Shown piece by piece: positions 1 through 54,077 of a DNA stretch of 60,188 bases. Source of the DNA: a virus. Its lineage: Duplodnaviria; Caudoviricetes. Within the stretch, counting starts at the first letter, position 1. Each line of letters starts with the position of its first letter. The translations under genes and the position numbers were made by a program. The notes under the pieces were generated by a model that was given only the letters and a program-made list of their open reading frames with translations, ran no database searches and was not told the DNA's origin. Location of the stretch: positions 1 to 60,188 of IMG/VR virus record IMGVR_UViG_3300025108_000004; one strand, written 5' to 3'.

Positions 1-4345
<4,345 letters not shown>

Positions 4346-4359
4346 ACGATACCCAGCCG

Positions 4360-4980
4360 TTATGTGTTACTAACAAATGTTACCGCAACCGATGCGGATG
4401 TAACAGCGGGGCGAGGTGAGGAAGCGGCACTTGCGCTAAGTGTAGCGTTTACATTATCCGTAGCCCAAAATATTTCCATATAATCGTTAGCGGAAAGCGC
4501 TAATGAACTGTTCCAATTGGCTATGTCTTTGTTACCAGACCCTGAAATAACGTATTCGTGTGCGCTGTTAATCTGTGCCGTGCCGTTTATTGCCAACCAA
4601 ATAGACACAGTTTTAGAGGAACTGTTTGTAGACTCAAGTTGCAGTGTTGTTTTTACGTGGTACACCCCATCGTTACTAACAGTAAGGCGAGAGTTACTTG
4701 CAACAGTAACTGCACTACTAGCGCGTGTCGTATTAAACGTAACTGCATAACCTGTATTGGGGTTTGCCGCTGTTTGGTCTACGGTGCTGTAAAAAACACC
4801 GTACGGAAAATGAAGAAACTTGCCACCGCCTTCAGTGCTGACTAAGTTATCAAACGCGTTTATAAGGCGTGTAAAGAACAGCCGCAGAACATTGCTGTTC
4901 TGGTCCATAAACGGGCGGTCGTAAGTCTCGGTTGCAAGAGGCAACGCTGGAGGAGCAGGACGCTCTAATTCGTTAGCCAT
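4360..4980 (-). CDS. Putative tail-associated protein with a C1q-like beta-sandwich C-terminus
   Basis: 206-aa ORF directly after the nozzle-like gene. VTFNT...[13 protein letters not shown]...NDYMEIFW resembles a C1q/TNF-like fold. Confidence 0.5.
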
Positions 4981-20910: not shown

Positions 20911-21126
20911 TTATCCAGCGGATACAGTCAGAACGCCTGAGTTGCTATACAGTTGACCTGCAACAGAAGGATCAGCGGTTGGTAAGTCTTTGAAGATGAT
21001 GACGCTGTTCGTGCCGTCGTGAGTAATAGAAATGTTCTCAGTGACGGTGCCAGTGTTATCAGCTTTAGTAATGTCCTTAAAGCCATTCTCCGAACGGACT
21101 GGACCTTGGAAAGTAGTATTAGCCAT
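20911..21126 (-). CDS. Small putative head fibre/decoration protein
   Basis: MANTTFQGPVRSENGF...LPTADPSVAGQLYSNSGVLTVSAG; first gene after the capsid gene. Confidence 0.55.
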   Translation of the reverse strand: MANTTFQGPVRSENGFKDITKADNTGTVTENISITHDGTNSVIIFKDLPTADPSVAGQLYSNSGVLTVSAG

Positions 21127-21128
21127 GT

Positions 21129-21180
21129 GAATCTCCTGTCTCGGCTAGTGTCAGTTACGGGATGTAACTGTCAGGGATTC
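21129..21180 (-). promoter_or_regulatory. Structured leader that can sequester the Shine-Dalgarno of the 71-aa gene
   Basis: Outer stem GAAUCCCUG/CAGGAGAUUC (one bulged A) encloses the inner hairpin CAGUUAC-AUCCC-GUAACUG. Confidence 0.5.
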
Positions 21181-29589: not shown

Positions 29590-29857
29590 ACTCTAAGTTT
29601 GTGGAAATTAGTAATATATAGGTGATACAGAGTCACGAGCTGACGTCGGGGTCATAGGGGGGCGGTACCCCATCGGATATCACGATTTGCTACGCGTACT
29701 AACATAACACCATAAAAATAAACCGCGCGTTGCTATATCCCTTGATTTGTTATCACATGATACGGTTTAATGGCTCTGCCTTCAGGGGAAACCCTATCGG
29801 CGCAATCGGTAGTCCGCGGACTACCACATTCTTTTAATCACTTAGGGAAACAGTGAT

Positions 29858-30749: not shown

Positions 30750-30930
30750 TGATACCAGTTATATCCGTTGCGCCGAGCCTCATCGCGTTGCGCCTTGTGA
30801 TGCCAGTTAATGATGTCGCGCCGAGCCTCACGTGTTATCACGTATGCGTGACGTGGGCCCGGGTCCGGGGTAAATGGTAGTCCGTGGACTACCAAGTTGA
30901 GACCAGTTATAGATGTCGCGCCGAGCCTCA
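30750..30930. repeat. Three imperfect 33-bp direct repeats TGAnnCCAGTTA...GCGCCGAGCCTCA
   Basis: Copies at 30750-30782, 30798-30830 and 30898-30930. Confidence 0.9.
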
Positions 30931-30984: not shown

Positions 30985-31373
30985 TAATGTTCGTTTTTTC
31001 TTTTGTAATGTTCGCGGTAATGTTCGTAATGTTCGGCTAATGTTCGCTTTTTTTAGAGCATGTGCGAACATTATATTTTCGTGGCAAATGATGAGCGCGA
31101 ACGCGCAAGGTTGCCAATTCTTGCCTATCAAAACTTTACATATCTTATCAATCTATCAATCTATCTATAATGTTCGTTTTTTAGAAAATTACACGCTTCT
31201 GTAAACGTAACACTAATTCTATTGTTCGTTTTCCAGTCGTTCGAGAGAACTCTCTCAGGGTAGCTCTTATCTCCGTCAAAAAGCGAACATTAGAACATTA
31301 CTTGTAAATCAAAAACTTACGCCATTTCAAAAACGAACATTACAAGAACAATACACAATACAACAGAACATTA
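30985..31373. repeat. Iteron-like array of TAATGTTCG / CGAACATTA nonamers in an AT-rich region (candidate origin)
   Basis: Direct copies at 30985, 31006, 31018, 31027, 31038 and 31168; inverted copies at 31065, 31284 and 31334; variants at 31220, 31292, 31345 and 31365. The origin function is inferred. Confidence 0.75.
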
Positions 31374-31399
31374 CACTTCTACCCACGTTTTGTAATAAC

Positions 31400-31428
31400 T
31401 TGACATCATCTGTCACTTATGAGATAAT
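31400..31428 (+). promoter_or_regulatory. Sigma70-type promoter for the early operon
   Basis: TTGACA-17 bp-GATAAT with a TGn extended -10. Confidence 0.8.
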
Positions 31429-31559
31429 AATACAACTGGGGGGTCGTACGTGTGTTTCCCACGCCTGTACATGTTTACACGCGTCACGCTACGGCCTCCC
31501 AGTTCTAACCACGGTAGTCCACGGACTACCAACTACAACAGTGTTCGAGGAGAACGACT

Positions 31560-32495
31560 ATGTTACACAATGATTCAGTAGTCCACGGACTACCTACTAA
31601 CGAAACAGCACCAGCTATCAGTGCACCATCGACACCTTCGATTGCATCCTCTGCAATGCTAGTAGAGGTCAGCTTCTCTACGTGGACAGGGCGCAAGCTC
31701 GACAAGCGTGCATCGACTGACGTGACACGGACCAACGGTGCTGACTCCGGTATCGCTAACGTGCACAAGAAACTGCTAGGCAACTGTGACGAGTTAACAG
31801 CCGTTCAAAAGTTCGCGGCTAACGCACGTAACATTCACTACTCGATGACCATGCCGTGGTCTGATACAGGTATGCGCCTACTACCTACCGCCATGTATGC
31901 CAAATACCACAGCGCGATGACCGACTTCCAAAACGAGTTCGAGCGTTTGGCCCAAGTATTCATCAGCGCGTACGAGTGGGAGATCAGCCAAGCCCAAGCA
32001 CGTTTGGGTGCGTTGTTCAGCCGTGACGACTATCCCTCTGCCGATTCCATCGCATCTAAGTTCGGGTTTCGTATTAACTACTTACCGCTACCTGACGCGG
32101 GGGACTTTCGTGTTGACGTGGGCAACGACGCGCGTGATCAGTTGGTTGACCACTACAACGCGCAGTACAGCGGGTTCTTGGAGCGGGCCATGTCTGACGT
32201 GTGGCACCGTGTGTACGACTCACTCACTAAGATGTCAGAGCGTCTCGACTACGGTGACCACGAGAAGAAAAAGATATTTCGTGACTCGCTCGTGGACAAC
32301 GTGCTCGACATGGTGGATCTGCTCGACGTGTGCAACGTGACCGGTGACTCTCAGATGTCAGCTATGCGGCTACAGCTTGAGGATGCGCTTCGTGGGGTGA
32401 CACCGGACGCACTACGTGATGACGCGTTTCTACGTGCTGAGACTAAGCGCGCTGTGGACAGTGCCATCAAGTCTCTACCATCACTCGATATCTAA
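31560..32495 (+). CDS. DUF3150-like protein
   Basis: 311 aa (WTGRKLDK...HKKLLG...PWSDTGMRLLP...YPSADSIASKF); usual neighbour of MoxR/vWA genes in mobile elements. Family call is from recall. Confidence 0.6.
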   Translation: MLHNDSVVHGLPTNETAPAISAPSTPSIASSAMLVEVSFSTWTGRKLDKRASTDVTRTNGADSGIANVHKKLLGNCDELTAVQKFAANARNIHYSMTMPWSDTGMRLLPTAMYAKYHSAMTDFQNEFERLAQVFISAYEWEISQAQARLGALFSRDDYPSADSIASKFGFRINYLPLPDAGDFRVDVGNDARDQLVDHYNAQYSGFLERAMSDVWHRVYDSLTKMSERLDYGDHEKKKIFRDSLVDNVLDMVDLLDVCNVTGDSQMSAMRLQLEDALRGVTPDALRDDAFLRAETKRAVDSAIKSLPSLDI

Positions 32496-32549
32496 TAAAC
32501 AAACACACTACTAAAACGGTAGTCCGTGGACTACCAACGGAGAATGACA

Positions 32550-33638
32550 ATGAACGCACAAAATATGTATGCACTAAACCTAAGCCAAGTTGCCACTGCT
32601 ATTCAGCATGGCGGTACCGATCGAACGATTCTTGTACAGGGTCACATGGGTACAGGTAAGTCGTCACTACTTAACACGTTATCAGACACACTACCGAACC
32701 ACGTACCGTGTTACTTCGACTGTACCACCAAGGATCTGGGCGACATCATGATCCCCAAGATGGCGACACTCGACGACGCCGATTTCGTCAAATTTGCTAC
32801 CAATGAGGAGCTGGGTCTGCACCACGGCAAGCCGATCATCCTGATGATTGACGAGTACGGCAAGGCTAACCCCGCAGTTAAGAACGCGTTACTACGTGTG
32901 ATGTTGGAGCGCAAGGTCGGCGGCTACGAGCTACACCCTGACTCGATTGTGTTTGCCACGACTAACCTCGGGGCCGAGGGTGTCGGTGACTTGTTACCAC
33001 CACACGCACGCAACCGCATCACAGTGGTGACGCTACGTAAATCCAGCAACGTCGAGTGGATCGAGTGGGGCATCAACAACAACATCGACCCGACTGTACT
33101 CGGCTGGTGTAAGGACAACCCGCAGTTGTTCGCTGGGTTCGAGGATGTCAAAGACCCTGACGACAACCCGTACATCTACCACCCACGGGCGCAACGTGCG
33201 GCGTTTGTTACACCTCGCTCGCTCGAAGCCACATCCGATTGGCTCAAGCAACGTCACCTATTCGATGATCAGACCCTGACAAGTTTACTCATGGGTACTA
33301 TCGGTGACCGTGGTGCGATGGACCTGATGGCGTTTGTGAAGCTGGCCGATCAGCTACCCTCGCTCCAATCCATCAAGGATGACCCGCTAGGTGCCAAGGT
33401 CCCTGACAGTGCGGCGGCTGTGTGTATGGTTGTTTACAGGTCATTGGCTACGATGTCGGCTGACTGGGTTGACCAGTGGATGACATACCTCGACCGACTC
33501 GACGCTAGCGCACAAGGTTTGTTCGGTGGACAGGTGACGCGTGACACATACGCACACCGCAAGATCATCATGACTAATCGCAAGTTCACCGACTGGGCGA
33601 TGGCTAACAACCACATGTTCGCGGCGGACAAGAAGTAG
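32550..33638 (+). CDS. MoxR-like AAA+ ATPase
   Basis: Walker A GHMGTGKS, Walker B ILMIDE, sensor ATTN, RNR arginine finger, TPRS sensor II. Start set by the GGAGA RBS at 32539. Confidence 0.85.
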   Translation: MNAQNMYALNLSQVATAIQHGGTDRTILVQGHMGTGKSSLLNTLSDTLPNHVPCYFDCTTKDLGDIMIPKMATLDDADFVKFATNEELGLHHGKPIILMIDEYGKANPAVKNALLRVMLERKVGGYELHPDSIVFATTNLGAEGVGDLLPPHARNRITVVTLRKSSNVEWIEWGINNNIDPTVLGWCKDNPQLFAGFEDVKDPDDNPYIYHPRAQRAAFVTPRSLEATSDWLKQRHLFDDQTLTSLLMGTIGDRGAMDLMAFVKLADQLPSLQSIKDDPLGAKVPDSAAAVCMVVYRSLATMSADWVDQWMTYLDRLDASAQGLFGGQVTRDTYAHRKIIMTNRKFTDWAMANNHMFAADKK

Positions 33639-33665
33639 TCCACGGACTACCACAAGGAGAACGAC

Positions 33666-34892
33666 ATGCTATCTATTGGTAAACAACTGACAGTCGAGCA
33701 ACGTGTGAGCAAGGCTGTTTACGATATCGTCAACAACCCCAAGTATGTGGCGTTGGCTGGTGTGATCATGATCGGTGAGCGTACGGTGTCTGACACAGTG
33801 CCCACCGCATGTACCAACGGACGCGATGAAACCTACGGACGTGCGTTTGTTGACTCACTCAACGATGCGGAGCTTCGATTCTTGATACTGCACGAGGTGT
33901 ACCACAAGTTGTACAAACACCTCACCACGTGGGAGTGGATGTACAAGAAGGACGCACAGCTTGCCAACGTCGCGTGTGACCATGTGATCAACATCAAGAT
34001 CAGTGACGACAACACTGACGGGTTCGCTGTCATGCCATCCCAAGGGTGTCGCGACTACGAGTACCGTGGTTGGGACGAGGCACGCGTGTTCAAACATCTA
34101 TGTGATAACGACTCATCAGATGATCAAAACGCGGACGGTTCAGGTGCCAATACCAACGTTGCCACTGGAGTCAATACGCATGGAGGGTTCGACGAGCACG
34201 ACTGGGAGGGTGCACAAGAGTTGACCGACGACGACAAGCGCGAGCTTGCACGTGACATCGACGAGGCCATACGTCAGGGTGCGATGGTTGCTGGCAAGAT
34301 TGGCGACGGCTCAGAGCGTGATCGGTTCGGTGACTTGCTCGAAGCACAGATCAATTGGCGTGAGGTATTGCGCGAGTTCATCAACACAACGTGCGCGGGC
34401 AGTGACTATAGTACATGGTCCCGTCCTAACAGGCGCTACGTATCATCGGGGTATTACATGCCAAGCGGTATCAACGACCAAGTGGGTGAGCTAGTCATAG
34501 CCATTGACACGTCAGGGTCTATTGGACAACGTGAGTTGACACTCTTCATGAGTGAGATACACCAAATCTGTCAATCGCTCTCGCCTGAACGCGTACGTGT
34601 TTTGTACTGGGACTCTCGGGTTCGTGGTAACGAGACATACGATATGCACGAGCTTGACGATCTACCCAAGGCGACTAAGCCTATCGGCGGTGGTGGTACC
34701 AATGTCGAGTGTGTCCCCAACTACATGCGTGATGAGAGTATCAAGCCCCAAGCGTGTGTGGTGTTGACCGATGGGTACGTCTGGGGATCATGGGGTCAAT
34801 GGGACTGCCCCGTGTTATGGTGTATCCTCGACAACAAAACAGCAAAGCCTGACACAGGTAAGCACGTAAACATACAATCTGGAGACCTATAA
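33666..34892 (+). CDS. HExxH metallopeptidase-like + vWA domain protein (DUF2201-type)
   Basis: TACTNG, HEVYH, MIDAS motif IDTSGS, GGGGTN, LTDG. Confidence 0.85.
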   Translation: MLSIGKQLTVEQRVSKAVYDIVNNPKYVALAGVIMIGERTVSDTVPTACTNGRDETYGRAFVDSLNDAELRFLILHEVYHKLYKHLTTWEWMYKKDAQLANVACDHVINIKISDDNTDGFAVMPSQGCRDYEYRGWDEARVFKHLCDNDSSDDQNADGSGANTNVATGVNTHGGFDEHDWEGAQELTDDDKRELARDIDEAIRQGAMVAGKIGDGSERDRFGDLLEAQINWREVLREFINTTCAGSDYSTWSRPNRRYVSSGYYMPSGINDQVGELVIAIDTSGSIGQRELTLFMSEIHQICQSLSPERVRVLYWDSRVRGNETYDMHELDDLPKATKPIGGGGTNVECVPNYMRDESIKPQACVVLTDGYVWGSWGQWDCPVLWCILDNKTAKPDTGKHVNIQSGDL

Positions 34893-35041
34893 TGGACAGT
34901 AGAGTTGATATCGTTTATGTAATCCAACGCCTCAACCGTATATTGGAGAACAGGGTGGGTATGGCGGACGCTTTGGATGAGTTTCGTGATGAGTTACTCC
35001 ACAATTTGACAGTGCACCCTACAACCAACGAGGAACAATAG
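34892..35041 (+). CDS. 49-aa hypothetical protein not in the ORF track
   Basis: ATG overlaps the upstream TAA; GGAG RBS; MDSRVDIVYVIQRLNRILE... Confidence 0.55.
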   Translation: MDSRVDIVYVIQRLNRILENRVGMADALDEFRDELLHNLTVHPTTNEEQ

Positions 35042-35208: not shown

Positions 35209-35246
35209 CGGTAGTCCACGGACTACCAAATAACGAGGAGAGAACA

Positions 35247-36170
35247 ATGAGCTTTAAATGGGTATCAGCACAACAGTGTAGGGATCAAGCGGCGGAGTCA
35301 TGGAAGTTCGATGGGCTTGGTGATGAGGATGACCGTGCTATGTTCCGACAGTTCACGCAGGATGTAGGTGGCGCATTATGTTCACGTGATTCAGGTATCA
35401 CGTTTGTGCAACGCACCAGAACGTCTTCATGGGTGCTACGTGACGACTGTCCTTGGGCTATCGGGTGGATTGGATACAGCGACATCCGTGATTCGCAGGT
35501 AGGTGGTTGGAAGCCGACATACAACGTGCACTCGTGGGCTATCACTAACGACAAGTACAGCAGTGGTAACAGCAACCGCCACACCAAGTCATCCACCAAC
35601 ATCGGCACAGCGATCAAGAATGCTAAGACATACTTGCGCCGACCTTCGCCGATTATGTTGGCTGGCGTGAAACGTGGTGTGTTGGAGAAAGGTATTCGGG
35701 AGGAGTTCGACAAGGTACGCAAGGGTGCAAACGAGACGGCAACTAAGGTGGTGGATATCGTGACAAGTATGTATGGCAACGTTAGGCAGAATAACAAGCG
35801 ACTATTCAAGGAGCTCAAGCACTTGCTCGACATGGGGCACGAGTTCTTAGATCCACAGTTCGGGTCAGATGTTCGCGCTATGGTGCACGCTGATCAGGTG
35901 ATGGGTGAGTCAGCCGTCGAGAACATTCCGTTCTACTGTGTGATGACATACGAGTCGCGTGGTAAGAATGTGTTCGATGTGGTCAAAGGTACGCAGGTCA
36001 ACCCGTACAGTGCCGAGATCAACGAGCAGTACAACAGGTTCACCGAGGATATGTTGCCCGAGGAGATCACACGTAAACTTGCTGTACTGCAAATGCTAGA
36101 CAGCGAAGACTTCGTGGACGGTGTGGGTGTCAGTGTGGGTGGTGGTATCTACTATGTCCTCGCCGATTGA
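35247..36170 (+). CDS. Hypothetical protein
   Basis: 307-aa ORF with a GAGGAG RBS after a palindrome. Confidence 0.8.
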   Translation: MSFKWVSAQQCRDQAAESWKFDGLGDEDDRAMFRQFTQDVGGALCSRDSGITFVQRTRTSSWVLRDDCPWAIGWIGYSDIRDSQVGGWKPTYNVHSWAITNDKYSSGNSNRHTKSSTNIGTAIKNAKTYLRRPSPIMLAGVKRGVLEKGIREEFDKVRKGANETATKVVDIVTSMYGNVRQNNKRLFKELKHLLDMGHEFLDPQFGSDVRAMVHADQVMGESAVENIPFYCVMTYESRGKNVFDVVKGTQVNPYSAEINEQYNRFTEDMLPEEITRKLAVLQMLDSEDFVDGVGVSVGGGIYYVLAD

Positions 36171-36495: not shown

Positions 36496-36538
36496 GTGTC
36501 CGTAAAATGGTAGTCCGTGGACTACCAAGGAGAGAATC

Positions 36539-44107: not shown

Positions 44108-44196
44108 GTTACTCGTCACAATGGTAATTGAACCGCGTTACGGCAGGGCGGGGGACAAACGTCTCTGCCGTAACGTTGCAAGCAATGGGTGGGTAC

Positions 44197-47028
44197 ATGG
44201 AAACGAAAACATTTTTAGAGAGGGTACTTAGTAGCGAGGGGCACTATTGCATATTTGCGGCAAAATCGGCGGACGAGCGTAAGACACAAAAATTCTATAG
44301 CTCTATCGACGATGTTGTGGAAGCCGCAACGCAGTTTGACCAGCAGGGGTACGACGTATACTACGGGCTAGCAACGTTTCACGAAGCTAACTCCCGTAAA
44401 GTTGATAATGTAAAACATCTCCAGTCGTTCTTCCTCGACCTCGATTGTGGCCCGACAAAAGACTTTGCTTCGCAAGAAGAAGCAATCAAAGCGCTACGTA
44501 AGTTTTGTAGTGCCAACCAACTACCAACACCGACGATGGTTAACTCGGGGCGTGGCGTGCACGTCTATTGGTTTCTATCGGAACCGGTGTGCTATGAGGA
44601 TTGGTTTCCCGTAGCAGAAAGACTGAAGCGCTTGTGTGCAAAACAGAACTTCTTAGCTGACCCTGCGGTAACCGCTGATGGTGCACGCGTGTTAAGAGTT
44701 CCTGACACACATAACTACAAGACTAATCCTCCGTCGGACGTAGGCTTTTTTGGCTTAGGTGAGCGATTTGAGATTGTCGTTTTTGACACATTCTCCGAAT
44801 TGCTTGGCGGAGAAATGATACCAGTTCCGACTAAACACATACCCAAAGAGTTGAGCCAAACAATGCACAACCTGATGGGTAACCAAGAAAATGTGTTTAA
44901 AGATATCTTGGTGAAGACTCAACGTGGTGATGGCTGTGAGCAGTTGTACAACATCATCCGGCACCAAGAAGAAACAAGCGAACCTCTTTGGCGAGCGGGG
45001 TTATCTATCGCTAAGTTCTGTACGGATAGTGATAAGGCGATGCACATCATCTCCAAAAACCATCCCGAATACACGCCAGAAGATACTCAGGATAAGCTCA
45101 GGCAAATCAAAGGTCCGTACACGTGTGCGAAGTTTGATGAGTTCAACCCTGACGTTTGTCCTAACTGTCCACAGTGGGGGCAGATAAAATCGCCGATTGT
45201 GTTGGGTAAGCGGCTTAAGGAAGCTGAGGTGACCGACGAAGGTGTTTACGTCGAAGCCCCGGCACTCGAACTTCCTAACCAACCCAAAACGACTTATGAG
45301 ATACCTAAGTTTCCTCCGCCCTACGTACGAGGCGTTAACGGCGGTGTCTATGTAAGGACGACTAACGAAGAAGGTGACACAGAAGAGAAGCGGCTGTACC
45401 ACAACGATCTGTATGTCGTGAAGCGGGTGCACGATCCTGAAGTAGGCGAAGCCATAGTGATGCGTCTACATCTACCGATGGATGGGGTGCGTGAGTTCAC
45501 ACTACCTATGAGTGCCGTCACATCTACAGAAGAGTTCCGTAAGGCGCTATCTTCTAGGGGCGTCACCGTAAAAAAGATGGATGAGTTAATGACCTACACA
45601 TTGCATTGGGTGGATGAGTTACAAGCCACCAGTACAGCAGATCAAGCGCACCGTCAGTTTGGCTGGGCAAACGATGAGATGGACGCGTTTATCTTGGGTA
45701 ACCAGAAAGTTACTGCCACTAGCGTTGAGTTCAACCCGCCCTCTAACCAGACAGTCGGGCTGTTCCCAGCGTTTGAAGCTAAAGGAAGTTATCAGGAGTG
45801 GCGTGACAACCTAGAACTGTGGAACAACGAGAGGTTTGTACTGCAACAATTCGCTATCGGTATGGGATTCGGCAGTCCATTGATGGAGTTTATGAACACC
45901 AACTGCGGCACAGTCTCGTTCTATAACAAAGACTCAGGTGTAGGTAAGACGGCCTTGTTGTTAGCCGCGTCCGGTATCTGGGGTGACCCCGAACAGCTCG
46001 TGTTGCAGAAGGACGATACCTATAACTTCAAGATGAACCGTGCAGAGTTAATGCACAGCCTACCTACCGGCATCGACGAGATCACCAACATGTCTCCGAA
46101 GCAGATGTCAGAACTTGTTTACCAAGGCACTAGTGGGCAACAGCGTGGCCGCATGTCACAAAGCTCGAACGTCGAGCGGTATCGTGGCGACAGGTGGAGT
46201 CTCTTGATGATGTACACCGCCAACACCAGCGTTGTGGAGCGTATCAGCATGGCGAAAGCTATGCCGAAAGCAGAGGCCCAGCGGGTACTGGAGTGTCGTG
46301 TAGAGCGTATGTTCGACTCGGTGCAGGATAAAGAAGTTACTGACGCCTTCGAGAACGGCCTGTTAAATAACTACGGGCACGCGGGTATCATATACGTGCA
46401 GTACATAATGCGAAACGTAGACGCCTGTAGACAGCTCGTGCTGGACGTCCAGAAGCGCGTAGATAAGTTAGCTGAGTTGACCTCGGAGAACCGCTTCTGG
46501 TCAGCAACTATAGCCGCCACCATATCCGGCTTACTCATAGCTAAGAAGGCTGGGCTACATGACTTTGACGTGCAGAAAGTCTTTAACTGGGCAGTGACTG
46601 ATCTCGTTACGCAGAACAAGCGCAACATGACAGAGATGGGTGGCAGTGTGTATGACGTGCTGGATGACTTCTTCAGCGAGAACATTAGCTACATCTTGCA
46701 GATAAAGAGCACGGCAGATAACAGAGGTACACACGATAACGGGTTAGACCAGCATGTAATACCTGAACAGGTGGCACGTGGACGTCTCATTGCTCGGTAC
46801 GAAACAGACACTAAGATGTTTTATGTTAAGCCGAAACCGTTGAAGGAGTGGTGTGGTGAGTTGCAGATTAACTACGCCCACCTAGTCAGTGAGATCATGA
46901 CTAAGTGCAACGGTAAGCGTAAGAAGGTACGCCTGACAAAGGGCACAAACCTTCAGCTCCCCGCATCAGATGTGATTGCCATGAAGTTTGACATGGAACC
47001 TGACGATGAAAATCTTGAGGACATATGA
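44197..47028 (+). CDS. Primase (RepB-like AEP) fused to a DUF927 helicase-like domain
   Basis: FFLDLDCG, VNSGRGVHVYW, RVLRVP, zinc motif TC...CPNC, Walker A SGVGKT, IDE. Confidence 0.85.
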   Translation: METKTFLERVLSSEGHYCIFAAKSADERKTQKFYSSIDDVVEAATQFDQQGYDVYYGLATFHEANSRKVDNVKHLQSFFLDLDCGPTKDFASQEEAIKALRKFCSANQLPTPTMVNSGRGVHVYWFLSEPVCYEDWFPVAERLKRLCAKQNFLADPAVTADGARVLRVPDTHNYKTNPPSDVGFFGLGERFEIVVFDTFSELLGGEMIPVPTKHIPKELSQTMHNLMGNQENVFKDILVKTQRGDGCEQLYNIIRHQEETSEPLWRAGLSIAKFCTDSDKAMHIISKNHPEYTPEDTQDKLRQIKGPYTCAKFDEFNPDVCPNCPQWGQIKSPIVLGKRLKEAEVTDEGVYVEAPALELPNQPKTTYEIPKFPPPYVRGVNGGVYVRTTNEEGDTEEKRLYHNDLYVVKRVHDPEVGEAIVMRLHLPMDGVREFTLPMSAVTSTEEFRKALSSRGVTVKKMDELMTYTLHWVDELQATSTADQAHRQFGWANDEMDAFILGNQKVTATSVEFNPPSNQTVGLFPAFEAKGSYQEWRDNLELWNNERFVLQQFAIGMGFGSPLMEFMNTNCGTVSFYNKDSGVGKTALLLAASGIWGDPEQLVLQKDDTYNFKMNRAELMHSLPTGIDEITNMSPKQMSELVYQGTSGQQRGRMSQSSNVERYRGDRWSLLMMYTANTSVVERISMAKAMPKAEAQRVLECRVERMFDSVQDKEVTDAFENGLLNNYGHAGIIYVQYIMRNVDACRQLVLDVQKRVDKLAELTSENRFWSATIAATISGLLIAKKAGLHDFDVQKVFNWAVTDLVTQNKRNMTEMGGSVYDVLDDFFSENISYILQIKSTADNRGTHDNGLDQHVIPEQVARGRLIARYETDTKMFYVKPKPLKEWCGELQINYAHLVSEIMTKCNGKRKKVRLTKGTNLQLPASDVIAMKFDMEPDDENLEDI

Positions 47029-47227
47029 GATCGCACCTGACGGGGTGCGTATAACAATCAACTGGGACAACATGCACATTGGCACGTCAATATTTGTGCC
47101 TTCTATCAACACAGAAGCGGCTACTCAAGAAGTTATGAAGATCTGCACCGAAAAAGGGTGGGAAGTAGAGAGTCGTTTACGCATCGAAGGAGGGTGTCTA
47201 GGGGTACGATTTTGGCGTAAAATGTGA
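47006..47227 (+). CDS. Small hypothetical protein, last gene of the rightward arm
   Basis: INWDNMHIGTSIFVP...LGVRFWR; overlaps the primase stop. Confidence 0.7.
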   Translation: MKILRTYEIAPDGVRITINWDNMHIGTSIFVPSINTEAATQEVMKICTEKGWEVESRLRIEGGCLGVRFWRKM

Positions 47228-47237
47228 TAGCGTGTTT

Positions 47238-47350
47238 ACGACAGTTAGTGTTTGTGTACCCCTTACGCTTCTGTCGTTCTCCTCGCCCTACTTGACGGCT
47301 TCGAAAAGTATGTGGCTTTACCCCCTTTGGTCCCCCGAAGGGGGTTTTTT
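47238..47350 (+). ncRNA. Candidate small RNA with a segment antisense to early-gene RBSs
   Basis: 5' stem ACGACAG/CTGTCGT; 47272-47285 is complementary to three early-gene RBSs; ends in a terminator. Expression is unverified. Confidence 0.45.
47332..47350 (+). terminator. Terminator at the convergence of the two arms
   Basis: CCCCC-GAA-GGGGG then TTTTTT; the loop reads TTCG on the opposite strand. Confidence 0.8.
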
Positions 47351-50300
47351 AATCTGGCAACCCAATAAAACCATTACGCTCTGCTTCGAGTTGAGCGCTC
47401 ATTACATCACGCATGTTGGGAGATAAAGCCACACCGTTGTGCATTTGCGAAGATGTTTTCATGTGTTGCCGCATAGAGCGTTTAATTGAATCTGGCGTTA
47501 TCTTAAAGCTAGGATGGTTGCGGTTGTGCTCCCTTATCTTTTGCTTGATATCTATTAAGGTAGAAAAGTCACCCTGCCGGTGCGCTAGATAATACTGCTT
47601 ACGTAGCTTAGACATTTTACGAGACAGCGCGTTATCGATTCGTTTAATGCGCTGGTTATCTTCTTGAATCCGCGTGTACTCTGACGGTGCAAATCCAAAG
47701 AACTGCCCTACCATCTCACCGCCAGTAATATCATCGTAGATAGCATCACCACGTCGAGAGTAGACACCTCCATCTTCTTGGTAGCGATCTAACACTTTGT
47801 ACGCATTAGAAATGCCCACTGGTAGTATACTCTCCAACCCGCGTTGGAATTCACCTTCAAGGATATCGTCTTTTCCTCGCATCACTCGTTTAAATACGCT
47901 CCATGCGGGACCACCTGCGTAGTACATGAACGTTTCTTCTAACGATGGATCATTATTGTATCGATTAGTCTGTAGTAGCAGACCTGTTAGGCGAATACGA
48001 GAAGCAACATCTATACCTACTCCAGCTTCACTAAGTGCCTCATTAACCGCACCTTTGTACCAACCTTCACCTACATAGTTACGTACTTTTGTGTTGAAGT
48101 CGTCGTCTTCATCAGACGCGAATAAATCGTGCGCCAACTGGATTGCTCCGTACAAAGGTACACCATGAATACCCGAGAAAAATACTGAAGAGCCAAGTAA
48201 CCCAAAGGCTTGGTTACGCGCAATTTTTATACGTTGCTTTATTTCTGCATCAGGTACGCCTTGTTCTTTTAGTATGTTGTTGTATACCCCGAATGCAGTA
48301 GCACCTACGTTAAACATCGTAGTGTACATACGCATACCGTACGTTTTATACATGCCAGCAACGCGCCCTATGTTTGCTCTCACTACAGGGGGCGCTGTTT
48401 CTAGTGTAGATCCACCATTAAGCTGGTGCGTTTCTCTGAAAGCGTTTTCTATAAGTGTATCGGCATCAACACGTTTACCTGTTTTTGCCGCCTCTTGTTT
48501 AGCTAAGTCATAACTCATCAACATAGAAACTTGTCTGTTGAATCGTTCAGCTTGGTTAAACATCATGGCGGATATAGCGGTACCCGTATCTAAGCCAGAC
48601 AACAATTTTGCTCCCATCGTGTCGTTACGTTGAGCACGAGCACCTTCTAGCAAGCCGATTGCATCTGCAATAAAAGATCTATTTAAATGCCCACGTTCTG
48701 ACGCACGCTTTACTAGCGGCGCGAACTCCTTTAATTCTTTTATGTGGTCTGGTGTTAGATCTAAGTCTTCTCGCACAACAAAATCATCGCCTACACGTTT
48801 GTAGTACGCGTCTATGCCGTATGCGGGAGAAAACTTATCCGCCAAATCAGTGGCTTTCTCAGCAAAATACTTCCCTGATAACTTAGAAAAGTCCATTGTT
48901 TCGGGGCGGTGATTACGGGCACTCATAACAATACGCATGGCACGGTACATAGCCTGTAACGTAGGCCTTACGCCATACTTAGCCATCATCATTGGCATGA
49001 CAACCATAGGAATCTGCGCGGTCTGCACAATGGCCGAAGCTGTGTTAAAACCAATAGTGCCAACAAATGCTAGCTGGTTAGCAACACGCACGAACCCTTC
49101 GATTTCTTTATATTTAGCACCTGACATGGCGAACTTAATTCGCCCTTGCAAGTCGTCAATTGACTGAGTAAGTTTCCATTCTTCTCTCGGGTCAAATTTT
49201 TCAAGCTCTGTCCTACCTACTTTGTCTAGATCAGACAGGACATTCTGCATAATGCCTGAGAATTTAAGTTTTTCTACCTGATTACCTAAGTCAAATCCCT
49301 TGGTTTTGATGGCGTAGAGGGCATCGCTTTCGTGCCCTGCCGTATTCTTACGTGATTGTAGTGAACGTGCTAATGACGACTCTGGTAGAGTGCTAACCAC
49401 CATTCGTAAGAAGGCTTCTTGTACGTCTTCGTTTACGTTTTTACCCGCCATCATCTTTAAAGTTTGATTGACGAACGACGTTGAAGGCGCTTCTTTGGCG
49501 TAGTTAACAAATGACTCGTTATCAGAAGAACGCACCAACTCCATGTCGGGGTTACTTTCTATCTCACGAAGTTGTGCCAACCAGTCGCTTCGGTTTTGGT
49601 GCATCTCAAATACAAAATTGTCCTGTCCTTTAGGCGTCTTGCCCGGCTTGTAACGGAAACCTATCTTGTATTTACCTTCACGAATCAGTGGGAAGTAAAC
49701 ATCCATCCCCTTTTTATCGAATAGTTTCTTTTCGAACTCGGTCTTTAATTTAGCAATGGTTTCTGTATCGCCATCAGCCATAGTCTCAATACGACTAAAT
49801 ATAACTTCTTTTAATTCGCTGAACTGCTTACGATAAAACGCCTGCATGTCTTTGTAGACTTTATGTCCTTTAGGATCTAGTTGACCTAACTCTTTCCAGC
49901 GTTTTTGGTTTTCTTGCCAAATTTCCCACAAGTTGTTTCCATCATCATCAGGCTCACCTTTGTACTTCTTCTCTGCCTCTGCACGGGTCAATGTCGGGTC
50001 TACTTGGAAGATGGTAGCGCCGTACTCACGACTATAGATGATGTCATTAAATAGTTTCGTAGCTTCAGGAGTTGCGTTGTCAAACCATCGTTCTATAGGC
50101 TTGATTGCCTCACGTGTAGAATCAATCCTTCGTGCTGTAGACCCTCGCATCTCCTCCATCGCAACAAGTGTTTTTTGTGCTACTGCACCTAGCTTTGCGT
50201 TAGTGGCTCTTGCCGCATCTACAAACCCGCTCATATCTAAAAACTTTAGAGGGATGCTTCCGTACTCTTTACCTAAACCAGCTACTGTATCTACAAACGA

Positions 50301-53300
50301 CTGCCCAAACTCTTCACGACCTTCTTTGGTGAGTGGTTTCCCAACAGTTTTTTGTATGCGCCCTAGTACACGCATGTCATCCTGCACACCGTCATGAGTG
50401 CTTTCCATAGCAAGTATGTTTGCATCTCGGAACTCAGGTGCAGGAGCAATGATCTCGTTAATTAGCGCGTCAACCTTAGTCATAGCGGAGTCTACGCTCT
50501 TTGCATCTCGACCAATCAAACGTCGTAGGAAGTTACCCACGCTGTTTAAGAACCGTTGTAACGCGTTAATGTTTGATCCGTCAGGATTGATACTCGCAAG
50601 TTCTGCACGGAATTGCCGATTAGACTGCGCTTCTGCCACAAACTCGTCGAGGTTCTTGGTGCCATACGCTGTACCAAGCATGTCCTTAACGTCGTTGTAA
50701 AGCGTGTTAAGTTGTTTGGTTAGTGGGTGCGAAGGTTTAGCTAACGTTGCCGAAGTCAATGCGTGGCCGACCTCGTGCAGTAACGTGTGTTGTCTAATTC
50801 CGTTAGCTGTGTTCAAGCGAATCGTGTTGGTCTTAGGGTCAAACGAACCCGCAAGGCTGTCCTTGGCAGTAGATGAGAATAGCTCGACTTTCGTATCGCC
50901 AATGTTTTCGGCAAAGGCACGGGCAAAACGTGCAACATCTTTATCGGGCGAAGCCGCTACAATTCGCAGTGCTCCTGCAATGTCTCCATCGTTCAATGCG
51001 GCAACGGCGGCGGGGTGAATTTCCATACCCAATACAACGTCTCTTGTACGAAGTTCGTAGGGCATGTCCTCGTTAAACTCATCGATAGCGGCCATAAGGC
51101 GCTTGGCACGTCTACGCTCGGCGGGAGTCATAAACGGATCATCTTGCGCGTATGTTTCTAGTTCTGCTTTTGCACGCGCTCTCTGCGTACTAGCAAGTTT
51201 TTTCGCTTCGTCTGCTTCACGTTGTTTGACAACTATATCTTCGCCAGCACGCTTTGCAGTAAGTCGGATATCCTGCATCTCAAGCTGTGCACGACGTTTT
51301 TTCATCCACAGTTGTGTGTTTTTACTTAGATTTTTTTCTGCCCATGCAACGACACGACCTGCGGGAGATCTTCCATCAGGACTTTTCGCATCGATCGTAG
51401 CACCTGTGTTCGCAAAAAACTTTTTGTCTGCTTCGGATCGACCTGTCTGCTCTTTGTCTATTGAAGTATCAACAACCAAGTCGTAAATAGCGGCGTCTAG
51501 TCCGTCAATGATACGTTCACGTCGTCCCAAGTAAGCCTCAATCGCCTTGTCTTCTACATTGTTTTTAGTGCCTACTTTTAGTTTATTGGCGACTATCTTG
51601 TTGTCGTTATCAGTTACAGGATCTGCATCATCTGAAATTGTGTTGGTGTTCGACGACGAATACCGTTTGAACGTAGATTCGTCTTTGAGATCTTTTTTCA
51701 ATGATTCGAGACGTGCACGAACCTCGGGATCATCACCCAACTTAGCTCTTTTAGGCGCTTCTTTCTTAGGCGTTGATTTAGCCTTTACTTTCTTTTTCTG
51801 TTCTGCCGGGGCCGCAGTAGTCTTAGCTTTCTGAGTAACTTGTTTACCTGTGGTAGCTTTCTCCCCCGGTTTAGTACCCGTAGGAGTTTCTAGTGTAGGT
51901 TGTTCAGCAACCGCTCCTCGTACAGGCTCTCCAACGCCTCTTCCAGTGTCTGCCACTCCTGTTCCTTCAGGTGCGATAGCGCCGGTGGTATCTGGCTGTG
52001 CAGGAGGTACTGCTCGCTCTGCCCCCACATCTGGTACAGCAGTTGGAATGCTAGCTCCACTTGGAACTTGCTGAGGTTCTGCAACTCCTGCATCTGGAAC
52101 TCCTGTCTTAGGTACTCTAGGGCCGGTCTTCGCAAATAAATCGGTTTGTTTTTCGGATGTTCCATCTAATAATCGTGCCACATTTGCACGGGCTTGTTCA
52201 CTAACCTTTTTACTCTTAGTTAAATTACGTAACCGTCGTTGTGTTTCAGGCTTGTTAACATCTTTATCAACCAAGACAGACTGCATACTCGGAGCTATAC
52301 CCAGCGTATCTAACCGTTCTTTTGTAAGTACGTCCGCTTGCGGTGCAGGTTCTTGTGTCTTAAGTGCAGGTTCTTTGAAAGGCTCACGAGTACGGCGCGG
52401 AATACCACCACGCGGTCCTATTAAAGGTTGTTCTATCTGCTTCCGTTCGGCTCGGGGTTCTTCAAGCCGCATCTCTTGTTGTTCTGGAGCAGGTGTTGGC
52501 TTAGGCATAAGCCGCTCTGATTCAGGCGTTACTTTCTGACGCTTGATTGTAGGCACTTCAGAAGAAACTTCTTGCACGCTACCATCGGGCATACGTACTT
52601 CAGTCGTACCTTTCACTCTACGACGCCCAAACATGTCACGCTGTACTTCAGTATCTTGCTCAAAACCGGGCAGTACAGGTTGCTCTTCTATTTGGTCGTC
52701 ACGTAAACCTAGTCTTCTTGCCGCTCTTCTATCTTGGCGCTCTTTACGATCTACTTTTGCTTGTTCAGTTTGTCGTTCAGCGGTAAACGCGTCGATCTGT
52801 TCGTCTTGCGCTCGTACCCTTGCGCGTTCTTCTGGCGACATATCAGCGGTTAGTCTTTCGTCGAGTAACTCAGTAGGTACCCGAGCAGAGCCTCTACGCT
52901 CCCTATCTAAAATAGCTTCTTGTCTTTTTTGTTGTTCTTGCTGTACAGCGGCTTCACGTGCTTCACGTTCTTTACGCCTAGCTTCTTCTACTATCTGCGC
53001 CGGAACTTCCTGCACACTGCCATCAGGCATACGCACTTGCACTAATTCGTCAGGGCGAGCGGGTGCGGGCAAGCCTAATAACTGCTGTTCTTCTACAATT
53101 TCTTCTTCGGTTGCAGGTGATTCTTCAGTTGCCGGTGCACCACGAGATTTACCTCGTGTAAACAACTCAACAATACCTTGCAGGATTGCACCTGATCCTG
53201 CGCCGATTGCACCCTCTTCAAGGACACCTGCGTCTATAAGCTCGCGCTCAACGTTATAACCACGCTCGTTAAGGTTCTGAAGAATACCTGCGGCGGCTTC

Positions 53301-54077
53301 TTGTATACCTTCTCCGACTCCTGTCCTTCCGGTCCTACCCAAAGCTGTTTTTGGCTCTTGAAAAAGCCTACGTATGGTACTTACGTTTTCCTTAACTTCT
53401 TCTCCGCCTTTGGCGAATAACTCACCAATTTTAGGTAGGCGTCTGAATATTCGAGTAAGAGGAACTACTTCTAAAGATCCTATGGCGGCACCGCGTAGAG
53501 TAGCTGTACCACGTTCTTCTTCAGTGGCACCAGCGGCACGAGCACGTTCACTCGCTTCACCAGCACCAGCACCGATACCTAACGCGGCGGCACCACCAAG
53601 ACCGAGTGCACCAGCAACTGGAGCCGAAACCGGTGCGGCGGCGGCAAGTAGTGCAGGGGCGGCAATACCAGCAATCGAGCCAAGGCCAGACGCTAGCTTA
53701 TACGAGATAGAATCGGGGTCACCCCCTTCAGGTCGAACGCCACTTGCGAAGTCTTGAATTCTCTTACGTGCGGCGAGTTCTTCCTCTTCCTCAAGAAGAG
53801 AAGCGGCACCGAGTGCGGCTAGTTCACCTGTACCTACAGCACCTGCACCAAGGCCAGCCCCAATGTTTTCTAGGAGGCCGGGTTTGCTATACCTAAAGTT
53901 AGAGGCACCTTTTAGGGATTCTAAATACCTACGTCGTACATCTTCAGAACTTGTTTTCTCAGATCGTTGTGTTCCACCTGCTTGCCTGAGCGCCGTTTCA
54001 AGTATCTGAATATCTTCAGTGTCACCGTCACGCCGAGCAATTTCATACGCACGTTGTAGTTGTTCTATAGTTGCCAT
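47349..54077 (-). CDS. Large internal virion/ejection protein with a zincin-like HExxH domain and PLxRxG-type C-terminal region
   Basis: 2242 aa; Gly/Ala hydrophobic N-terminal segments; AGSFDP...IRL...TLLHEVGH...EFVAE; YFPLIREGKY. Confidence 0.75.
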   Translation of the reverse strand: MATIEQLQRAYEIARRDGDTEDIQILETALRQAGGTQRSEKTSSEDVRRRYLESLKGASNFRYSKPGLLENIGAGLGAGAVGTGELAALGAASLLEEEEELAARKRIQDFASGVRPEGGDPDSISYKLASGLGSIAGIAAPALLAAAAPVSAPVAGALGLGGAAALGIGAGAGEASERARAAGATEEERGTATLRGAAIGSLEVVPLTRIFRRLPKIGELFAKGGEEVKENVSTIRRLFQEPKTALGRTGRTGVGEGIQEAAAGILQNLNERGYNVERELIDAGVLEEGAIGAGSGAILQGIVELFTRGKSRGAPATEESPATEEEIVEEQQLLGLPAPARPDELVQVRMPDGSVQEVPAQIVEEARRKEREAREAAVQQEQQKRQEAILDRERRGSARVPTELLDERLTADMSPEERARVRAQDEQIDAFTAERQTEQAKVDRKERQDRRAARRLGLRDDQIEEQPVLPGFEQDTEVQRDMFGRRRVKGTTEVRMPDGSVQEVSSEVPTIKRQKVTPESERLMPKPTPAPEQQEMRLEEPRAERKQIEQPLIGPRGGIPRRTREPFKEPALKTQEPAPQADVLTKERLDTLGIAPSMQSVLVDKDVNKPETQRRLRNLTKSKKVSEQARANVARLLDGTSEKQTDLFAKTGPRVPKTGVPDAGVAEPQQVPSGASIPTAVPDVGAERAVPPAQPDTTGAIAPEGTGVADTGRGVGEPVRGAVAEQPTLETPTGTKPGEKATTGKQVTQKAKTTAAPAEQKKKVKAKSTPKKEAPKRAKLGDDPEVRARLESLKKDLKDESTFKRYSSSNTNTISDDADPVTDNDNKIVANKLKVGTKNNVEDKAIEAYLGRRERIIDGLDAAIYDLVVDTSIDKEQTGRSEADKKFFANTGATIDAKSPDGRSPAGRVVAWAEKNLSKNTQLWMKKRRAQLEMQDIRLTAKRAGEDIVVKQREADEAKKLASTQRARAKAELETYAQDDPFMTPAERRRAKRLMAAIDEFNEDMPYELRTRDVVLGMEIHPAAVAALNDGDIAGALRIVAASPDKDVARFARAFAENIGDTKVELFSSTAKDSLAGSFDPKTNTIRLNTANGIRQHTLLHEVGHALTSATLAKPSHPLTKQLNTLYNDVKDMLGTAYGTKNLDEFVAEAQSNRQFRAELASINPDGSNINALQRFLNSVGNFLRRLIGRDAKSVDSAMTKVDALINEIIAPAPEFRDANILAMESTHDGVQDDMRVLGRIQKTVGKPLTKEGREEFGQSFVDTVAGLGKEYGSIPLKFLDMSGFVDAARATNAKLGAVAQKTLVAMEEMRGSTARRIDSTREAIKPIERWFDNATPEATKLFNDIIYSREYGATIFQVDPTLTRAEAEKKYKGEPDDDGNNLWEIWQENQKRWKELGQLDPKGHKVYKDMQAFYRKQFSELKEVIFSRIETMADGDTETIAKLKTEFEKKLFDKKGMDVYFPLIREGKYKIGFRYKPGKTPKGQDNFVFEMHQNRSDWLAQLREIESNPDMELVRSSDNESFVNYAKEAPSTSFVNQTLKMMAGKNVNEDVQEAFLRMVVSTLPESSLARSLQSRKNTAGHESDALYAIKTKGFDLGNQVEKLKFSGIMQNVLSDLDKVGRTELEKFDPREEWKLTQSIDDLQGRIKFAMSGAKYKEIEGFVRVANQLAFVGTIGFNTASAIVQTAQIPMVVMPMMMAKYGVRPTLQAMYRAMRIVMSARNHRPETMDFSKLSGKYFAEKATDLADKFSPAYGIDAYYKRVGDDFVVREDLDLTPDHIKELKEFAPLVKRASERGHLNRSFIADAIGLLEGARAQRNDTMGAKLLSGLDTGTAISAMMFNQAERFNRQVSMLMSYDLAKQEAAKTGKRVDADTLIENAFRETHQLNGGSTLETAPPVVRANIGRVAGMYKTYGMRMYTTMFNVGATAFGVYNNILKEQGVPDAEIKQRIKIARNQAFGLLGSSVFFSGIHGVPLYGAIQLAHDLFASDEDDDFNTKVRNYVGEGWYKGAVNEALSEAGVGIDVASRIRLTGLLLQTNRYNNDPSLEETFMYYAGGPAWSVFKRVMRGKDDILEGEFQRGLESILPVGISNAYKVLDRYQEDGGVYSRRGDAIYDDITGGEMVGQFFGFAPSEYTRIQEDNQRIKRIDNALSRKMSKLRKQYYLAHRQGDFSTLIDIKQKIREHNRNHPSFKITPDSIKRSMRQHMKTSSQMHNGVALSPNMRDVMSAQLEAERNGFIGLPD

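Follow-up and report, generated by a model that had tools for sequence, protein, structure and literature searches.

The gap at positions 47228-47348 of the phage genome IMGVR_UViG_3300025108_000004, between the convergent open reading frames (ORFs) 46988..47227 (+) and 47349..54077 (-), may encode a plus-strand small RNA (sRNA) of about 110 nt (47240-47350) that pairs with the start regions of the phage's own early genes and represses their translation; judged from the sequence, we give this reading an even chance. The window, i.e. the whole stretch of DNA that was analysed, corresponds to one complete virus record of IMG/VR, 60,188 bp long and bounded by direct terminal repeats. The element in the gap is probably a member of a new family of phage sRNAs that would repress early-gene translation. 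This family comprises predicted RNAs of 57-111 nt, encoded at the 3' end of the replication arm in uncultured aquatic phages, and no description of it was found in Rfam or in those parts of the literature that were searched. A previous examination of the same DNA (hereafter named the sequence-only reading) had proposed a later-made sRNA at this site, directed against the ribosome-binding sites (RBSs) of three early genes, the DUF3150-MoxR-vWA module.

Conservation, structure and strand of the element

A search of IMG/VR with the primase encoded before the gap provided 38 loci (46-100% identity). Nine of them were dropped, since their contigs end before the gap, and the remaining 29 together with the window gave 30 primase-downstream gaps. 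The motif (A/T)TCTCC was found between a 5' stem-loop and a terminator in 29 of these 30 gaps. The stop codon of the small ORF that precedes the gap was directly followed by TAnnnT in 28 of them, a feature not required by the search, and in the other two the hexamer TATACT was located 3 nt later. The same succession of stop codon and TAnnnT was seen in five out of five further genomes. With the TG one base upstream of the hexamer this becomes TGnTAnnnT, where the three inner bases vary freely. Between the hexamer and the start of the stem there are always six bases, themselves unconserved, and the stem usually opens with G.

Ten complete genomes were compared (the window, G001-G006 and G011-G013, with primases 48-94% identical), and each of them contained exactly one element at the expected site, with a terminator in 10/10. 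All ten hold the DUF3150, ATPase and VWA genes as well, which agrees with the expectation that the element is conserved where the module is kept. A composite pattern (TGATAnnnT, 6 nt, GACAG, loop, CTGTC, up to 8 nt, TTCTCC) was present in at least 116 IMG/VR stretches. Among 77 pattern matches examined, the 59 unique rows all follow the Trp-Arg end of the small ORF, and a terminator (G-run plus T-run), which the pattern does not demand, comes after the motif in 74 of the 77. The covariance model R1, built from 90 unique sequences, recovered the 10 expected genome sites with E values from 3e-10 to 0.037. A second R1 match in G005 (L142 12314-12440) was rejected as an sRNA, this being a tandemly duplicated segment of about 60 nt with a terminator-like hairpin.

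Relatives of this phage among cultured viruses are remote. No DNA match was found among GenBank phages by blastn ('distant') with regions 46500-48000 and 31200-34900, and at the protein level the cultured relatives were Pseudomonas phage Rollin (29% primase identity) and the Rhizobium RHph_TM phages. R1 found nothing in the primase regions of Pseudomonas phage Rollin and Rhizobium phage RHph_TM3_14A, and the gap of the Rhizobium phage contains a plain terminator. Analysis of the whole window with Rfam 15 at the gathering threshold gave only Mu-gpT-DE and nothing at the element; when 47150-47420 was analysed with E values up to 10, the best match was anti-hemB, with 19.2 bits versus the 49.5 required, mainly on the terminator. 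The primase gave no match in GTDB genomes. The ATPase alignment includes two contigs of metagenome-assembled genomes (MAGs), one assigned to Alphaproteobacteria and one to Ca. Methylopumilus, binning being no proof of the host. A 55-kb phage-like contig in the Ca. Methylopumilus MAG (L281/L285, G016 contig C13; ATPase 57% and primase 45% identical) shows TATACT after the stop codon, AUUCUCC in a hairpin loop and a terminator, which makes it a diverged copy of the element. Ca. Methylopumilus is a possible host, at the level of a hint. Another contig of this MAG (L282, G016 contig C11, 26019-26135, -) gave a weak R1 match off the phage locus (E = 0.0185), consisting of a hairpin with a CUUCCCUCCCUG loop and then a terminator, which might be a bacterial C-rich sRNA.

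The RNA 47240-47350 folds with -40.6 kcal/mol (z = -5.46), against z = -1.97 for its reverse complement. Its parts are listed in Table 1. The 5' stem-loop (SL1) has a C-rich loop, CCCC, at 47259-62 in its interior, and the core of the seed, UUCUCC, is located at 47277-82. The 14-mer TGTCGTTCTCCTCG, on which the sequence-only reading was founded, spans positions 47272-47285 (+), and every sequence quoted there was found at the position given for it. The 5' stem was also confirmed and leaves GUUCUCCUC unpaired, but its extent had to be corrected: with a start at G47240 it consists of GACAG/CTGTC and not of ACGACAG/CTGTCGT. The extended -10, the 5' stem, the unpaired bases complementary to the Shine-Dalgarno sequence (SD) and the terminator, all of them proposed from the window, are conserved far beyond close relatives.

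The SL1 segment had z < -2 in 23 of 26 homology-derived unique sequences, and in these sequences it was stabler on the plus than on the minus strand (mean -9.5 vs -6.5 kcal/mol, Wilcoxon 5e-5). Plain RNAalifold, applied to a MAFFT alignment of 23 sequences, returned the terminator only and no covariation. SL1 was missed because its 3' arm was misaligned, and therefore the pairs were counted on alignment A1 with a structure named by us. In A1, 93.5% of the cells were paired versus 84.6% with shuffled partners (0/500 shuffles reached the observed value) and 48-60% when the arms were slid. Compensation of GC>AU type was present in SL1 in five rows, and the one-sided changes all give G:U, which is a C:A mismatch on the other strand. 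Stem variants were GACAA/UUGUC in L004, GACUG/CAGUC in L015 and GGCAG/CUGUC in L013, and an entirely different stem, GCUGGCC/GGCCAGC, was found in G012. SL1 also holds a 7-nt indel between close relatives. The middle hairpin is deleted or replaced in L009/L020, L003/L010 and L004, and is absent from distant relatives.

The 90 unique RNAs (57-111 nt) have a median length of 72 nt. Eighty-four begin with G (in 64 of the 90 this base is fixed by the pattern), 87 open with a stem that closes before the motif, and in the minimum free energy (MFE) fold at least 5/6 of the motif is unpaired in 69. A further CUCC or CCCC lies inside SL1 in 42 of the 90, and some lineages have CCACCUCC there.

Complementarity to early start regions

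The matches of the reverse complement of the 14-mer to the three module genes were all found: 13/13 at 31546-31558, 12/12 at 33655-33666, where the last base is the A of ATG 33666, and 11 nt with one G:U at 32539-32549. It had been cautioned that generic SD content lowers their statistical weight. The simple motif count is unimpressive: GGAGAACGACA with at most one mismatch occurs four times versus 1.06 expected, and 3 of 100 shuffles reach four, which is weak alone. A flank test was then made in which the TTCTCC core was fixed and the flanks were randomised (2000 trials, 71 start regions of the window). Random flanks gave a 13-nt match in 0.1% of the trials and two translation-initiation regions (TIRs) with at least 10 nt in 1.5%; the observed top-three sum of 33 was reached in 0/2000.

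Pairing was scored by a home-made, RNAup-like procedure, in which the duplex energy was computed for sRNA windows of 8-16 nt and the energies needed to open both partners were added. After opening costs, the vWA gene ranked 1/71 (-11.2 kcal/mol), the DUF3150-like gene 2/71 (-11.0 kcal/mol) and the gene starting at 35247 3/71 (-10.3 kcal/mol, opening of SL1 being unnecessary); fourth place went to a primase site pairing with the loop of SL1, and fifth to MoxR (-9.0 kcal/mol). The 71 start regions had a median score of -3.8 (standard deviation 3.5), and the seed was the preferred interaction site in 18 of the 20 best TIRs of the window. The prediction that the three module genes should rank at the top was thus roughly borne out (1, 2 and 5 of 71), but by a small margin.

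For the comparison across genomes, the seed of each of the 10 genomes was paired with the start regions of the same genome, and 36 orthologue groups present in at least six genomes were ranked. The best geometric-mean ranks corresponded to w59 (the gene after the SNF2 helicase), the SNF2 helicase, DUF3150, vWA and MoxR, all five being plus-strand genes of the early arm. The ranks in the 10 genomes were 48, 6, 4, 1, 2, 3, 2, 5, 15 and 4 for the SNF2 helicase; 1, 2, 19, 4, 25, 6, 1, 7, 16 and 2 for DUF3150; 3, 54, 2, 22, 3, 15, 6, 3, 59 and 40 for vWA; and 6, 45, 7, 34, 21, 9, 5, 2, 18 and 70 for MoxR. The SNF2 helicase and the gene downstream of it therefore rank as high as the module or higher, and the restriction of the targets to three genes is not supported; neither is the "later-made" part of that proposal. 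The early arm as a whole was considered as the target class and discarded, because the difference in pairing energy between plus- and minus-strand genes was significant in only 5/10 genomes (p = 0.83 in the window). Genes preceded by a perfect hairpin occupied 31 of the 100 top-ten slots versus 71 of the 674 genes outside the top ten (Fisher p = 4e-7), and hence the likely target class is that of the genes with a hairpin plus an extended RBS, not one module.

The seeds vary by lineage and the RBS spacers vary in step with them (Table 1). The cognate seed gave the longest top-five matches for seven of the 10 genomes and was second for G013. In a larger test, which used 33 unique seeds with no less than 7.5 kb of sequence upstream of each, cognate matches averaged 8.22 nt versus 7.38 (permutation p = 2e-4), and the cognate seed was first in 9/33 cases and first or second in 14. 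Furthermore, GUUUCUCC-type RNAs were accompanied by GGAGAAAC-type start regions in 14/31 cases versus 20/156 for GUUCUCC-type RNAs (Fisher p = 1e-4). The signal for the anticipated co-variation with the early RBSs appears to be real but moderate.

From the sequence of the element, its conservation, structure, strand and complementarity, we infer how it would be transcribed, pair in vivo and repress, and when. A host-type RNA polymerase would initiate at the extended -10 promoter, which includes the small-ORF stop codon; alternatively, the RNA would be cut out of the 3' untranslated region (UTR) of the operon. The RNA would open with a protective stem-loop, present a single-stranded CU-rich seed, (G)UUCUCC plus flanks, often together with a second C-rich loop, and end at the intrinsic terminator. 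The seed would pair with mRNAs of the phage itself, from the early genes and the replication arm, at their SD, spacer and AUG region; these mRNAs carry an extended RBS (GGAGAAC...), often behind a phage-specific hairpin. This pairing would block binding of the 30S subunit and might trigger decay. The best predicted sites in this phage are those of the vWA, DUF3150, 35247 and MoxR genes.

Table 1. Predicted parts of the element, predicted target sites, palindrome copies in the window and lineage-specific seed/RBS pairs
Feature	Position	Strand	Remarks
Putative extended -10-like promoter element, TGaTAGCGT	47225..47233	+	TGA is the stop codon of small ORF 46988..47227
Putative transcription start, G	47240	+	7 nt past the -10 hexamer; constant spacing to the stem
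SL1, 5' stem-loop	47240..47275	+	GACAG (47240-44) pairs with CUGUC (47271-75); MFE fold
Single-stranded seed GUUCUCCUC	47276..47284	+	nine bases unpaired in MFE and centroid folds
Middle hairpin	47285..47316	+	from the fold; closest relatives only
Intrinsic terminator, 11-bp stem, U6	47320..47350	+	called at 47320-47346, plus strand only
Predicted target, DUF3150-like start region	31546..31562	+	ATG 31560; 13 nt complementary
Predicted target, MoxR-like AAA ATPase start region	32539..32552	+	ATG 32550; 11 nt, one G:U
Predicted target, DUF2201/VWA-like start region	33655..33668	+	ATG 33666; 12 nt reaching the A of AUG
Predicted target, start region of 307-aa gene, CGAGGAGA	35234..35249	+	ATG 35247; absent from the sequence-only reading
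Palindrome copies	29809-29824, 30877-30892, 31514-31529, 31578-31593		
Palindrome copies	32519-32534, 33635-33650, 35211-35226, 36510-36525		
Seed and RBS, window and G001			seed GUCGUUCUCC; RBS GGAGAACGAC
Seed and RBS, G006			seed GUCGUUUCUCC; RBS GGAGAAACGAC, at least 5 genes
Seed and RBS, G013			seed CUUCGUUCUCC; RBS GGAGAACGAAG
Seed and RBS, G003/G004			seed CAUGUUCUCC; RBS GGAGAACAUG

The hairpins in front of the early genes of the window are copies of the palindrome GTAGTCC(A/G)(C/T)GGACTAC, which occurs at eight sites between 29.8 and 36.5 kb (16 matches over both strands, 0.44 expected). Most copies lie 14-34 nt upstream of early-gene start codons, and the one at 35211-35226 precedes the 35247 gene. 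Relatives have GTTAG-x-CTAAC hairpins at the same position, with conserved outer arms and a phage-specific centre, often forming a 7-bp stem with a 3-nt loop. These hairpins could be phage-specific promoters, processing sites or operators.

Objections and alternative explanations

Several observations speak against repression by a trans-acting sRNA and have to be set against the evidence given above. Regarding the promoter, no -35/-10 pair came up in a consensus scan, and the sequence in the -35 region is poor, so the promoter is put forward as a candidate. Conservation has one exception, L023 (8356-8560; primase 58% identical), which is without the element; in this locus the 3' end of the giant gene lies about 60 nt after the small ORF. 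Of the 90 rows in A1, 64 entered through a pattern in which GACAG/CTGTC/TTCTCC is fixed, which leaves the homology-derived rows as the source of informative variation. The three module RBSs are copies of one hairpin-plus-RBS cassette, and because of this shared cassette the three matches are not independent events. The UCUCC seed is able to pair with almost any SD, late and host genes included. Three or four of the paired bases of the module matches lie in SL1, whose opening costs 7.2 kcal/mol, and the margin of the module over the next gene is therefore less than 1 kcal/mol. The gene starts (71 in the window) come from our own crude ORF caller, which favours SD-preceded starts. The ranks of MoxR and vWA are poor in several genomes (45th and 54th in G001; 70th and 40th in G013). 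The long match is not conserved either, as G011, whose primase is 94% identical, keeps only 8-9 of the 13 nt. The cognate seed was 5th of 10 for G011 and 6th for G005, and in the test with 33 seeds the median cognate rank was 9, several lineages getting no further than the 5-6 nt of generic SD pairing. Phylogeny is disregarded in the permutation and Fisher tests, which moreover depend on crude gene calls. Finally, five RNA-labelled runs were found, and contigs from X1, X2, X4 and X5 cover parts of the primase and the giant gene with sequence from relatives. No piece from X4 or X5 spans 47154-47301, and the single piece of X1 crosses this interval, but the RNA label of X1 was guessed. Being assembled contigs, these runs are silent on ends, strand, level and expression either way.

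The main rival explanation is that the element is a cis-acting 3' UTR of the replication operon, in which SL1 and the terminator stabilise the mRNA and the CU stretch pairs locally in cis or serves another local role. The partner in cis would be a GGAGAAC sequence made up by the final Trp-Arg-Thr codons of the small ORF. We consider this explanation unlikely. It is consistent with the position of the element directly behind the small ORF and with the terminator, which by this layout is common to the element and the upstream operon mRNA. In addition, of 86 unique contexts, 42 have GGAGAA in the last codons of the small ORF and 19 more have GGAGA or GGAGG there, at a distance of about 50-60 nt before the motif. 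The remaining 25 contexts, including the window (TGGCGT), have the motif and no such complement. Nor would a 3' UTR account for the TAnnnT being invariant, for the constant distance of 6 nt to the stem or for the co-variation of the seed flanks with RBS spacers located kilobases away.

A somewhat less probable explanation is that the sRNA is real and acts mainly on host mRNAs or on the translation apparatus, as a general anti-SD molecule or a mimic of the 16S 3' end, the matches to the phage's own RBSs being a by-product. The UCUCC core pairs with any GGAGA SD, the further CUCC/CCCC and CCACCUCC stretches of SL1 would fit such a role, and in several lineages the matches to phage TIRs do not exceed 5-6 nt. 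What argues for the phage's own genes as targets is that cognate seeds fit the TIRs of their own phage better than other seeds do, that the U2/U3 seed variant tracks the RBS variant of the phage, and that the flanks in the window exceed the random expectation.

The position directly after the AEP-primase/DUF927 gene and its small partner ORF, between convergent transcription units, would also suit a DNA-level element, i.e. a replication origin or a loading site for primase or helicase. We regard this as very improbable, since no iterons or AT-rich tract are visible in the gap and the strand-asymmetric stability, the G:U pairs on the plus strand only, the U-tract terminator and the -10 element at fixed spacing point to an RNA. 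The least credible explanation, by a slight difference, is a relic or real RBS of a small minus-strand gene, or a chance match: the motif reads GGAGAA on that strand, with an ATG at RBS distance in 15 of 87 unique elements, and the simple motif count is not striking, but 47 of the 87 have no start codon 3-12 nt after GGAG, the ORFs opened by the others (1-80 codons) share no conserved frame, the fold of the minus strand is worse, and chance is excluded because the degree of conservation is too high. In the window there is no ATG, GTG or TTG within 3-12 nt after GGAG, so that the minus-strand GAGGAG is without a start codon, as had been noted before. By these sequence criteria, and in view of the 7-nt indel in SL1, the element region is non-coding.

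Genome setting, known systems and significance

The structural genes of the window are located on the minus strand at about 0-29 kb and the early/replication arm on the plus strand at 29.8-47.2 kb; a second minus-strand block starts with the 2242-aa gene 47349..54077, whose stop codon is overlapped by the U tract of the terminator. The element thus closes the arm, with the DUF3150-MoxR-vWA start regions 13-16 kb upstream of it. The gene names of the sequence-only reading were supported in outline by Pfam: 32550..33638 is an AAA_5-type (MoxR-like) ATPase, 33666..34892 has a DUF2201_N and a VWA-like DUF2201 domain, 44128..47028 is an AEP-primase/DUF927 protein, and the DUF3150 match of 31560..32495 is sub-threshold (22.1 bits vs 24.9). 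The 79-aa ORF 46988..47227 (+), which follows the primase, belongs to no family. The AAA ATPase (32550-33638, +) is highly conserved, with matches in 336 IMG/VR stretches, the best 80 of the 336 at 72-100% identity. Its remote relatives in cultured phages (21-27% identity) are found mostly in 70-80-kb phages of Pseudomonas, Achromobacter, Erwinia and Vibrio, which we take to be N4-like. The C-terminal 400-780 residues of the 2242-aa protein (47349-54077, -) match the ends of PHROG giant-protein families of 2900-4647 positions, one of them labelled DarB-like antirestriction. The Mu-gpT-DE RNA detected with Rfam is located at 21124-21176 (-), with 69.3 bits (gathering 49), and adjoins the head-gene block.

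Two types of bacterial sRNA resemble the element. The C-rich anti-SD sRNAs of Firmicutes (RsaE/RoxS type), like other sRNAs whose seed is directed at the SD, expose one or more C/U-rich stretches, located in loops or linkers, that pair with the G-rich SDs of several mRNAs, and they end at an intrinsic terminator. They are chromosomal and control metabolic regulons, whereas the proposed targets of the phage element are the phage's own early genes, and no Rfam match was obtained. The 3'-UTR sRNAs of DapZ/MicL type are transcribed from a promoter that overlaps the last part of the preceding coding sequence, and they end at the terminator of that mRNA. This type is known from enterobacterial chromosomes, and the phage element, as far as its sequence tells, may have a similar layout of putative promoter and terminator.

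The closest known mechanism is that of the c4 antisense RNA of phages P1 and P7 (immI), described as a small phage RNA that pairs around the RBS of the phage ant mRNA and blocks its translation, and whose complementary bases are thought to lie in loops (PMC12197685, PMC8198154). c4 is encoded upstream of its single target, icd-ant, in the same co-transcribed operon and serves lysogeny control, whereas the element is located at the far end of the arm, outside such an arrangement, and has several unlinked predicted targets. No lysogeny genes were found in the annotated parts of this phage. Rfam presumably includes a C4 family, and no Rfam family reached the threshold at the element.

The closest known logic is that of RegA of T4, a regulator from the replication cluster that competes with ribosomes at start regions. 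RegA is described as being encoded in the replication gene cluster and as competing at the TIRs of about 30 early and middle mRNAs (PMC3014915). RegA is a 122-aa protein that recognises A+U-rich sites, whereas the element is proposed to be a base-pairing RNA, and the two would be analogous, not homologous. We tentatively suggest, with rather less confidence than for the sRNA itself, that the element is an RNA counterpart of RegA, in which the seed co-evolves with a phage-private extended RBS "address" (GGAGAAC/GGAGAAAC plus spacer plus AUG). This address would be common to the hairpin-preceded early and replication genes, and therefore one RNA of 70-110 nt could shut down a whole temporal class.

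Known phage sRNAs are described as few, mostly from temperate coliphages or prophages and mostly acting on host genes or on one phage gene (PMC12197685). If the proposed function is correct, a well-defined and abundant family (at least 116 contigs) would be added to the catalogue of viral non-coding RNAs. The natural seed/RBS variants within the family make compensatory-mutation tests straightforward. The family would represent an RNA-based solution to the early-to-late translational switch, which in T4 is handled by proteins, and it would explain the unusually uniform, extended RBS of these phages. Such a system of RBS addresses would be widespread among uncultured phages of marine and fresh waters, whose non-canonical RBS extension would have been selected for pairing with an sRNA, and not with the 16S rRNA.

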